From positions 8,767,968 to 8,831,967 of the forward strand of contig CAVNZM010000004.1 of assembly GCA_963693365.1 (NCBI GenBank): DNA of 64,000 nucleotides, read 5' to 3'. How positions within the stretch are numbered: the stretch's first letter is position 1; each line of letters begins with the position of its first letter. The position numbers and the translations under genes were made by a program. The notes under the pieces were generated by a model. The model ran no database searches, was not told where the DNA came from, and was given only the letters and a program-made list of their open reading frames with translations. The stretch is from Amoebidium appalachense. Taxonomy: Eukaryota > Protista > Ichthyosporea. Of this stretch, positions 41,001-44,000 are shown piece after piece.

Positions 41001-44000
41001 CACACACACACACACACACACCCAACACACATGACACACCCCACCCCACCCCACACCAACCTACCCCCTTCTAATGAGGTGAAGGGGTTGAAATTCGGAT
41101 ATTGTGAATGGATGACTTGGGCCCCCCTGAGGATGGACTCTGCTCAGTGGCATACTCATTTTGTGTGCTTTGCATCACCTCTATGTCACACCTAATTGTT
41201 TTGTGTGTCGTGAATGTGTAACTTGTAATTCGTTCTCTGTAACATGTTTGACTATTCCTCCTCCCTCCCCCCCCCCCCCCTCCCCCCCCCCCCCTTCCCA
41301 GCTCCCCTTCCCCCCTTCCTTCCAATCATTCCCCCCCTTTCTGCACCCTTCCTCCAGCCCTTCAGCCCTCCCTCCCTCCTTACCTCCCTCGCTCCCTCAG
41401 CCTCCCCCCCCCCCCCCCCCCCCCCCCCCCCCTTCCCTCCCTCCTCTCTTTCCTCCGTCCAACCCTACCTAACTCCCTTGTGCCCTCTGTCCGTCCCCAA
41501 GTCCCCCAAACCCCTTTCCAAAACATGACGTTCTTCTTATTCCTTTCTTTGACCATTCCCTTCCATCATGTTCACAACAGAAACGGCAGGCCAAACAAAC
41601 GTATTTCCCCCCCCCCCCCCCCCCCCCCCCCCCCCCCCCCCCCCCCACCCCAACCTCAACCCCAACCCCATTCCCACCGCCCCGACGTGAGGACGTACTC
41701 ATCAGATGTTGCATACCCTTTATGTGAGCTTGTCTTTGGGACCTCTGTATTGTGATGTCCGTCGTAGTGAATGGGTGTTTTCTATTTTGTAACACTTTCT
41801 AACCCCGTTTCCCTGCCATCCCCCCCCACCCTCCAGCGGCTTGGGACCGTCGCTTTTCATATTCCTTCGTTGTCTGCTTCAATGGCCTACAAAGGCATAA
41901 ACACCATGTTTTTTTTCGAGTACACACATACACGCACGGGCGCGTGCGCGCGCGCGCACACACACACACACACACGCGCGCGCGCGCGCGCACACACACA
42001 CACACACACACACACACACACACACACAGTTCCCCTTGCAGCGCTTATGATTGGCCGGGATCTCGGGTTGATGGCTGGAGGTTTTGTGTACAGATACAAG
42101 TCGCTGGAGCCTCCGGTGGGTGCATGCACCACGTGAAACCACGCAGGCACACGCGTGCACGCGGGCACACACACACACGCACACGCACACAACATACATA
42201 CATACACACCGAGAGAGAGAGAAGGGGGGGGGGGGGGGGGGGGGAAGAGAAAGAGAGAGAGAGAGAGAGAGAGAGAGAGAGAGAGATTTAAACACACAAG
42301 CACGCAGACACACACAGATTCATGTTCGTGAGCCCGCGTGAGCACACATACAGGAGGGGGGGTAAGAGAAGGAGGGAATGATTGAGGGAGAGGAAGGGGG
42401 AGGGAGGGGTGAGAGTGGTTTTTATTTTTTGTTTCTTTTTTTTTGGGGGGGGGGGGGGGGGGGGGGGGTAGAGAGAAAAAGAGCATCGATATGCGGCTAC
42501 GCACACAAACACGTACAGGCATGCAGGCACACGCAGATCCTGTCCACATATACAAGTTGCCACCCGCTAATTCTTCTCCCATGTTGCCGAGCCCCACCCA
42601 CTCACTCTACATGCTTTCCTTGCATGTGTGTGTGTGTGTGTGTGTGTGTGTGTGTGTGTGTGTGTGTGTGTGTGTGTGTGTGTGCAGTGGTGGTGGTGGT
42701 GGTTTTTTTTTTTTTTTGGGGGGGGGGGGGGGGGGGGGGGGGCTTGTGTGTGTGTGTGTGTGGGCGCACGCGCTCTTGTGTGTGTGTGTGTGGGCGCGTG
42801 TGTGCACGCGTGTGCAGGTCCGCATTCATATGGGTGGATGATCGTGTCTGTGCACGTATGTGTACGTGTAAACCTGGCTGTGTACGTGTGCTCCTACAGA
42901 TCACCGTCTCCAAATACTTCGATGTAACCCACGGTACAACCGAGTTTCGCCCGACCACTATTAGCAAGGTAGCGACCCCCCCCCCCGTTCATGTGTACTT
43001 CGTACTTTATGATACTCTCCCCCACCCACCACCCACTAACCCATCCATCCATCATATGCATTAAACCCTATACACACAACCTAGAGATCACACGACCCCC
43101 TCCAATGGTGGCCAGGTTAAGTTCCCCCTCTATTTCTCTTTGTCTCCATGTCCCCCCCCTCCCCCCTTTCCCCCTCCCCTCCCCCAACCCCCCCCCCCCC
43201 CCCCCCCCCTTCCCCCCTCTGCCCCCTCCTCCTCCCCTCCCCCCTCACCCCTTCCCTCCCTCCCCTTCTCCATAGGTTAGGGAGTCGGGGAGCTTTGTAG
43301 AAGCCCGGCTGATGCTCTACTTCTCTGCTTGTTGTCGTTGTTTTTGTCTGCTTGCATTTTTGTAGACCCTGTTTTCGTAGGTTGCTGCTCTTTGAACAAC
43401 CCTGCTCGTCTTTGGCCAAGACGGGTGGACTCGCCTATTGCTGTTGAAGCAAAGTATGGGTTGGGAGTCACGTGCGAGAGGTTATAGAGTCGAAATTCAT
43501 GCTTATGTGAAGGCATAGGACCCACCCTGATGATAGGCTCTGATCAAGGGTCTTCAGCCTGCACGCTAAATTGTTTGATTTCGGATTTCCCACTTTTGTG
43601 ACGTTTTGTTGTTGCTCTTAGTTGCCTCCTCCGTATTCCCAACCCTCTAACGCATACATCAACCCCCCCCCCCCTCCCCCCTCCCCCCCCCCCCACACAC
43701 ACACACACCACCCCACCCCTGCCCTCCCTTCCCTCGTCATACCGACACCCACACACACCAACGCGTTGCCATTGCACATAAGATATTCTGCTCTGTTAAA
43801 TTACCCTCCACACGTCCCCCTCCCCCCCCCCCTCCCTCGGCCAAACACACACACACACACACACCATTCGCTACAGTAATGCGATCATTGATCTAGGAAA
43901 AGAAAGTTAATTCGATCTTTTTTTTGACGGTAAAAAGAAAAACATGTTGTGACGGCAATAATCCCCAGGTCAACACGGCCCTTCAGCTGAGTCTGCTTGG

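Follow-up and report, generated by a model that had tools for sequence, protein, structure and literature searches.

The locus and its repeat

The DNA analysed here, which we call the window, is a 64,000-nt stretch of the genome of the ichthyosporean Amoebidium appalachense (contig CAVNZM010000004.1, positions 8,767,968–8,831,967; assembly GCA_963693365.1). It is intron-rich eukaryotic DNA whose exons match LisH, Ist1, F-box and CDP-alcohol phosphatidyltransferase models, and it holds several copies of a repeat with a structured RNA domain, one of them at 43392–43547 (all coordinates are those of the window). The initial annotation of this DNA took the domain to be a functional RNA whose structure is under selection, for example a ribozyme, and our analysis supports that view. 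It also stated that the RNA matched no recognisable family, which our analysis does not support: the invariant letters are those of the hammerhead core, namely CUGANGA, GAAA after the G10.1–C11.1 pair and the UH cleavage site. Judged from its letters, the domain is likely a self-cleaving hammerhead with the layout of type SGC, opened between A9 and G10.1, and with a predicted cut after GUU at 43462.

An invariant motif of 18 nt occurs eight times in the window (0.27 expected). The eight copies that bear it comprise four full copies, one copy that has the core but not the 5′ domain (2701–2943) and three shorter, 5′-truncated copies near 13737, 17161 and 41125. The full copies belong to three families—A (2386–2544 and 31061–31219), B (27431–27583) and C (43392–43547)—and their sequences and coordinates are as first annotated. 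A covariance model built from these four copies recovers, at E < 0.01, only the eight known copies.

The RNA domain holds the letters of the hammerhead core

The heptamer C3-U4-G5-A6-N7-G8-A9 is present in all five copies that hold the core, and the sole letter that varies is N7, which is G in families A and B and U in family C. In the coordinate pair table, G12-A13-A14-A15.1 follows the G10.1–C11.1 pair. The cleavage site reads GUU (G16.2-U16.1-U17) in the same five copies, and the A15.1–U16.1 pair is present. Stem III is 9–10 or more pairs long. Stem I adjoins H17 on its 3′ side and C3 on its 5′ side; it has four pairs in family A (GGA/UCC and one more pair), three in family B (GGG/CCC) and two in copy C, where the letters of the family majority (see below) bring the number to three. 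One of its pairs shows a compensatory change, being A–U in family A versus G–C in B and in the majority of C.

The sequence features of the hammerhead class are thus all present, but the RNA lies outside types I–III; its linker is unlike that of type SGC, and A9 and G10.1 would no longer be joined. The invariant motifs listed in the initial annotation are real and correspond to the core letters. What it called helix 3 corresponds to stem III, and its pseudoknot is probably stem II. Stem I had been overlooked. The strand of the RNA is set by the core letters and not by folding energy.

A descriptor made of the core and three stems finds five matches in the window, all of them copies of the repeat, versus 0.085 per shuffle (200 shuffles). 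This control speaks against the idea that a structured 3′ element of a short or long interspersed nuclear element (SINE or LINE) resembles a hammerhead by chance without being related to it, as do a covarying stem I that adjoins C3 as well as the UH site, and the recurrence of the layout across phyla in published passages (see below). A coincidence of this kind would fit the absence of a hammerhead match in Rfam and the failure of single-sequence folding to give the core. Nevertheless, the nested models of Rfam are blind to this strand order, and the element has no tRNA-like head. We regard coincidence as very improbable, and the fold very probably derives from the hammerhead.

Covariation and family-majority letters support the fold

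RNAalifold, applied to the four full copies, gives 46 pairs, of which 11 change on both sides. Pairs were tallied from their coordinates because stems I and II are out of register in the MAFFT alignment. The coordinate pair tables and RNAalifold together bear out the closing helix and the hairpin of the initial annotation as well as its helices 2 and 3. Its pseudoknot has 5/5 Watson–Crick pairs in copy C and in each full copy of family A, and 5/6 in B.

The folding energy of the sense strand is better than that of the antisense strand by 11–14 kcal/mol in three of the four copies (A1, B and C) and by 6 kcal/mol in A2, a copy in which the antisense z-score is stronger than that of the sense strand (−4.6 versus −2.7). 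Copy C alone folds no better than shuffles (z of −0.78 and −0.98 in two runs).

No Rfam model reaches its gathering score in the window, and none matches at E ≤ 10 around copy C. This is expected because the nested models of Rfam cannot score a non-nested strand order. Around the family B copy there are four weak matches, none of note. A match to the CPEB3 ribozyme (27762–27850 on the reverse strand, in the 5′ part of family B; E of 1.7 and 13.6 bits versus a cut-off of 35) was judged by eye to be due to chance, its last helix being without a partner and key letters being different in the second B copy. Hairpin, hepatitis delta virus-like, pistol and lariat-capping ribozymes were considered and dropped since the hammerhead core explains the invariant letters.

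Variants of family C were collected at 80% likeness from the contigs of three public DNA runs belonging to two studies; one of these runs may be the source of the window. Among the variants listed for copy C, all six majority substitutions at paired positions (43391, 43496, 43497, 43505, 43524 and 43543) improve or restore a pair. The majority C at 43496 and 43497 converts G–U to G–C, position 43524 of stem I reads C in 81–93% of depth, and the closing-helix mismatch at 43543 reads U in 85–100% of depth in the three runs that cover it. The mismatch at 27546 in family B reads C in > 99.8% of depth in 4/4 runs, which gives the pseudoknot 6/6 pairs, and it is therefore private to the copy in the window. 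We conclude that the RNA is a real and selected structure, its pairings being backed by covariation and by the family-majority letters.

Family B is abundant in these data, with 3,485–4,932 distinct contigs per DNA run on one 201-nt stretch, which is a count of contigs and not a copy number. Its contigs also appear in one run that we guessed to be RNA and that is possibly DNA; they provide no evidence of transcription. On family C, contig depth is far greater over the tail (43567–43660) than over the core, and loose ends run into the closing-helix strand, which suggests that there are further families or that truncated copies are numerous. In one contig of one run, 27513 is joined back to 27410, one base off the predicted cut; the junction is seen once and falls at the margin of the examined stretch.

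Two strands can form stem II

Two strands are able to pair with 43487–43491, either the upstream strand 43428–43432 or GGCUC, which lies two letters past A9. Among these two candidates, covariation is found only in the upstream strand, where a C–G pair is replaced by U–A at 10.4:11.4 in family C and at 10.5:11.5 in family B; GGCUC is fixed and mismatches B at 10.5. The upstream duplex is favoured in the three A copies, with −6.6 to −9.4 versus −5.6 kcal/mol. If the upstream strand is stem II, A9 is not joined to G10.1, and the chain would most likely exit the core at A9 into the closing helix and re-enter it through P2 to G10.1. We think it probable that this core-opened stem II is the working fold.

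Alternatively, the RNA could be an ordinary hammerhead of type SGC with a 2-nt insertion past A9, in which stem II is formed by GGCUC (43536–43540) and 43487–43491 and the upstream strand is an inhibitory switch. GGCUC is invariant across the five core-holding copies and fits as stem II in all of them, with four to seven pairs, so that CUGANGA could lie within 2 nt of stem II in the copies of the window. Its duplex is equally or more stable in the B and C copies as they stand; in copy C, it has seven pairs and −7.0 kcal/mol versus −6.4 kcal/mol for the upstream strand. The minor variant U to C at 43490 (four contigs, one and none in the three runs) is compatible with this fold and breaks the upstream stem II unless the partner changes. 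One Naiad passage reads as a plain type SGC, and the covariation within the window is drawn from three families. On the other hand, the GGCUC helix shows no change on both sides and carries two G–U pairs in family B in addition to its mismatch, and seven Naiad relatives are unable to form a stem II of this kind. Furthermore, the RGG just past A9 already has a predicted partner of its own in CCU (43401–43403), with the pairs C–G, C–G and U–G in families A and B and U–A at the last position in C. Covariation leans to the upstream strand, and we consider the ordinary type SGC fold rather improbable.

Architecture of the domain

In the core-opened fold, the strands would follow one another from 5′ to 3′ as closing helix, P2, stem II 5′ strand, bridge, and stem III with the UH site and stem I; then linker, stem II 3′ strand with GAAA and stem III, bridge, stem I with CUGANGA, and closing helix (Table 1). 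The bridge helix has 7–8 pairs and connects the far sides of stems I and II, which it would hold together in place of loop–loop contacts. The closing helix and P2 would keep A9 beside G10.1, a position at which Penelope hammerheads often have one extra nucleotide (Cervera 2014, PMC4209133). We presume a standard three-dimensional core, in which G12 would act as the base and the 2′-OH of G8 as the acid, as described for the hammerhead mechanism (Zhan 2024, PMC11300833), and in which the chain would be cut after 43462.

Each family has two self-complementary loops. Palindromes of at least 6 nt number 3–4 versus 1.6–2.0 in shuffles, which is modestly above expectation, and the sole argument for a role of the palindromes is their fixed positions.

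Table 1. Parts of the RNA domain in copy C and copies of the carrier element (window coordinates)
Feature	Position	Strand	Remarks
Closing helix P1, 5′ strand	43390–43398	+	Pairs with 43541–43549; pair tables, RNAalifold, majority letters at 43391 and 43543
CCU, inner P1	43401–43403	+	Predicted partner RGG 43535–43537 just past A9; 2 × 3 loop between it and closing helix
Hairpin P2	43404–43426	+	Ends 0–1 nt short of G10.1; loop UGAUCA (A, B), UGGCCA (C)
Stem II 5′ strand (G10.1–10.5), proposed	43428–43432	+	Upstream of cleavage site; pseudoknot of the initial annotation
Bridge helix, 5′ strand	43434–43441	+	Pairs with 43513–43519; helix 2 of the initial annotation
Stem III 5′ strand and G16.2-U16.1-U17	43452–43462	+	U16.1-U17 at 43461–43462; predicted cut 43462/43463
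Stem I 5′ strand (1.1–1.3)	43463–43465	+	Pairs with 43524–43526
Linker, cleavage block to GAAA block	43466–43486	+	18–21 nt outside stems; palindrome of 6–10 nt in every family
Stem II 3′ strand, GAAA and stem III 3′ strand	43487–43504	+	Stem II 43487–43491; GAAA 43492–43495
Bridge 3′ strand, stem I 3′ strand and CUGANGA	43513–43533	+	Stem I 43524–43526; CUGANGA 43527–43533
URGGCUC past A9 and closing helix 3′ strand	43534–43549	+	GGCUC is the alternative stem II 5′ strand
Carrier, family C copy	43272–43662	+	Between C-rich runs; CAA then C run at end, 200 nt past predicted cut
Family A copy, full RNA	2287–2671	−	Predicted cut after 2472; truncated copy and C run directly before (partial tandem)
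Family A copy, 5′-truncated	2701–2943	−	Whole core; without P1 5′ strand and most of P2
Family A copy, full RNA	30947–31287	−	Predicted cut after 31147
Family B copy, ∼715 nt, probably full length	27345–28059	−	Predicted cut after 27513
Worn copy, 5′-truncated	41069–41156	+	Begins inside linker; without cleavage block
Family A copy, 5′-truncated	17133–17314	+	Begins in stem III 3′ strand

Comparison with known hammerheads

The comparisons made here and below draw on parts of the cited sources. The order of the blocks in the repeat (cleavage site, GAAA, CUGANGA) is not the circular order of types I, II and III and equals that of type SGC (HRIMA-1 and variants; PMC10085705). The two share this order, a pseudoknotted core, the conserved letters and a bridge between the far sides of stems I and II, which is stem 'I' of type SGC. 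They differ in the linker, which has ∼3 nt in type SGC and 18–21 nt in the repeat, and probably in that CUGANGA is joined to stem II in type SGC, whereas stem II of the repeat would take its 5′ strand from upstream. The repeat has two extra helices, which would enter at A9/G10.1. Type SGC RNAs are ∼80 nt long and were not found in the genomes of known organisms, whereas the RNA of the repeat is genomic (PMC10085705). Since the current scheme of six types assumes that CUGANGA and its adjoining pairs stay together (Eckert 2023, PMC10085705), the core-opened layout would fall outside it.

The type I and minimal hammerheads of Penelope pseudo-long terminal repeats and of non-LTR retrozymes are of type I order, with a short stem III and tandem arrays (PMC4209133; bioRxiv 10.64898/2026.07.22.740005). 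The repeat, in contrast, has a long stem III and a non-circular order, and its copies are dispersed, with no tandem array that carries a type I hammerhead in each unit. It shares with the pistol-like hammerhead (Zhan 2024, PMC11300833) a standard core inside a pseudoknotted frame.

We did not find the core-opened layout described in the literature searched, which left most subscription papers and the supplements of Eckert 2023 outside its coverage, and the layout is absent from the passages of PMC3088659 (Perreault 2011), PMC13725137, PMC13159263 and bioRxiv 10.64898/2026.07.22.740005 that were available. A scan with the exact motif gave no match in viral contigs and five in metagenome contigs, none of them with the structure. 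With a looser pattern, 120 loci were obtained in 19 of the 64 parts of the viral collection. The full layout is found in none of these 125 viral and metagenome loci; 13 of them match loosely, with at most four pairs in stem III and at most five in the hairpin.

The novelty lies in the wiring and not in the catalytic class, hammerhead catalysis being already known. The window adds a short carrier that inserts at C runs, a GUU site, a competing strand for stem II and three diverged families in which pairs are repaired at the level of the population.

The carrier element

The 3′ end of the carrier copies reads CAA or CAAA and leads into a C run, 168–200 nt past the predicted cut, and most copies start at a C run. 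Many are 5′-truncated, and at 2287–2943 a longer copy immediately follows a truncated one in a partial tandem. The family B copies at 1–451 and 27607–28059 are 97.8% identical and have the same 5′ start base after a C-rich run; because two copies begin at the same base, the ∼715-nt family B copy is taken as probably full length. The carrier contains no tRNA, and Rfam reports nothing of note over the family B copy that would indicate a head derived from a polymerase III gene. We conclude that the carrier is probably a non-autonomous Penelope-like element, whose partner we infer and do not see in the window.

A second hairpin is common to families B and C and lies ∼100 nt upstream of the ribozyme domain (27668–27694 and 48–108 on the reverse strand, 43283–43310 on the forward strand). 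It has a purine-rich internal loop, and its stems differ in letters yet stay paired. Worn 3′-end fragments of related families lie between C runs at 2111–2232, 5682–5834, 30049–30216, 31448–31597 and 477–593.

As to the neighbouring genes, the LisH exon is identical to a solved LIS1 fragment at 13 of 32 positions. A search for homologues that used a single short exon found none. At 10957–12450 on the forward strand, an F-box domain and leucine-rich repeats lie in different frames with an intervening stop, owing to either an intron or a broken gene.

Similarity to Naiad and Chlamys elements

Naiad and most Chlamys Penelope-like elements have been reported to lack canonical hammerheads, with some core motifs that fit no descriptor (Craig 2021, PMC8557442). 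The same source gives targeting of (C)n, 5′ truncation and partial tandems as traits of these elements, and the repeat matches them in its (C)n insertion, its 5′ truncation and its one partial tandem (2287–2943). Four of the five (C)n-targeting Chlamys ends examined finish in AA and a C run, as do the copies of the repeat (PMC8557442).

The full strand order, including the closing helix, P2 and the bridge, is present, as read by eye, in seven of 18 Naiad 3′-end passages from the supplement of PMC8557442. The seven elements come from five animal phyla and are Naiad_Bfor, the Clytia element, Naiad-2_Movir, Naiad_Plae, Naiad_EuTe, Naiad_Obim and Naiad_Ovul, the Clytia, EuTe and Obim names being assigned by file order. 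Their stem letters are unrelated to those of the repeat, and their sites are GUA, AUA, AUC or UUC. In all seven, the letters past A9 are unable to form stem II and pair instead with letters ahead of the hairpin. The P2 loop is self-complementary in three of the seven, and that of Naiad-2_Movir has the same eight letters as family C. By eye, the linker in the Naiad passages is 0–6 nt long. The authors flagged Bfor and Movir-2 as HHR_core and Ovul as HHR_half_core, giving no fold, and left Plae, EuTe and Obim unflagged (PMC8557442). The remaining 11 passages show other arrangements, one plain type SGC, or nothing clear; arrangements seen by eye in File S5 of Craig 2021 seem to include a plain type SGC, a helix enclosing CUGANGA and a branched stem II.

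Two aspects of this comparison tell against the kinship. It was made by eye on 18 passages and is neither tool-scored nor a census of the 54 consensus sequences, and none of the ten Chlamys 3′ ends examined shows the layout. The (C)n target therefore points to Chlamys and the RNA to the Naiads. The window differs from these elements in that a Pfam search of 184 reading frames found none with an N-terminal GIY-YIG domain and a reverse transcriptase. The GUU site, the long palindromic linker and the looped closing helix are peculiar to the repeat. Of 26 Hydra-clade hammerhead rows, 10 have a predicted U at the cleavage position (Craig 2021 File S2, PMC8557442), and GUU is thus not odd within the Penelope-like group.

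Possible function in transposition

By cutting read-through or tandem transcripts 168–200 nt ahead of the 3′ end, the ribozyme would free a unit-length RNA, which the reverse transcriptase of a partner element could then copy into C runs. NUU sites generally cut slowly. U17, the competing GGCUC strand and the two self-complementary loops suggest that the RNA on its own cuts slowly and is aided by pairing with another RNA or by a protein. The loops, modestly above chance in number, hint at pairing between two RNAs, which is known for minimal Penelope hammerheads. In a lizard Penelope element, the hammerhead needs a protein and copying starts inside the RNA (Frangieh 2024, PMC11167929).

Several observations weigh against an active ribozyme that serves in transposition. 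None of four truncated copies starts at the predicted cut, and truncation points do not cluster there. No match to a reverse transcriptase or GIY-YIG Pfam model was found in 184 reading frames of the window, 180 of which come from 197 that passed a length and complexity filter. Among the variants listed, the minor ones at 43501 and 43518 disrupt pairs of stem III and the bridge. U17 may do no more than pair with A14, an arrangement seen in the predicted folds. Finally, the lizard Penelope hammerhead is dispensable for insertion in vitro (Frangieh 2024, PMC11167929), and for this reason we only infer a role for cleavage.

The domain might accordingly be a descendant of a hammerhead that no longer cuts and whose fold persists because it binds the reverse transcriptase of the partner or serves as a dimerisation signal. 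A U17 that is present in all copies and able to pair with A14, a stem I of just three to four pairs, invariant letters in the P1 loop, two palindromic loops and the dispensability of cleavage for insertion of the lizard element in vitro (PMC11167929) would all suit such a role. Against it, the catalytic letters are all kept while N7 and the stems vary, and in the passages compared the Naiad relatives retain the core and have A or C as letter 17. We think a loss of cutting unlikely and predict, with fair confidence, that self-cleavage would be measurable.

The most far-reaching interpretation joins these parts. The repeat would then carry an active core-opened hammerhead, outside the scheme of six permutations, that is the long-missed ribozyme of Naiad and Chlamys elements, extends beyond animals and is gated here by two strands for stem II and by pairing of RNAs through their palindromic loops. 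We offer this combination tentatively, as a possibility with clearly less than an even chance of being correct as a whole.

Implications

If the core-opened hammerhead is borne out, it would represent a wiring that the assumption of the current scheme excludes and would show that a hammerhead tolerates a break between A9 and stem II. The point of entry within the hammerhead core would then be a new place for the attachment of sensing domains. A ribozyme with a non-circular permutation would occur in very abundant genomic repeats and thus beyond environmental RNA. It would also explain why descriptor searches found Naiads without hammerheads, and the exact predicted cut site, together with mutants of the core, would make the role of the ribozyme in the transposition of Penelope-like elements testable.

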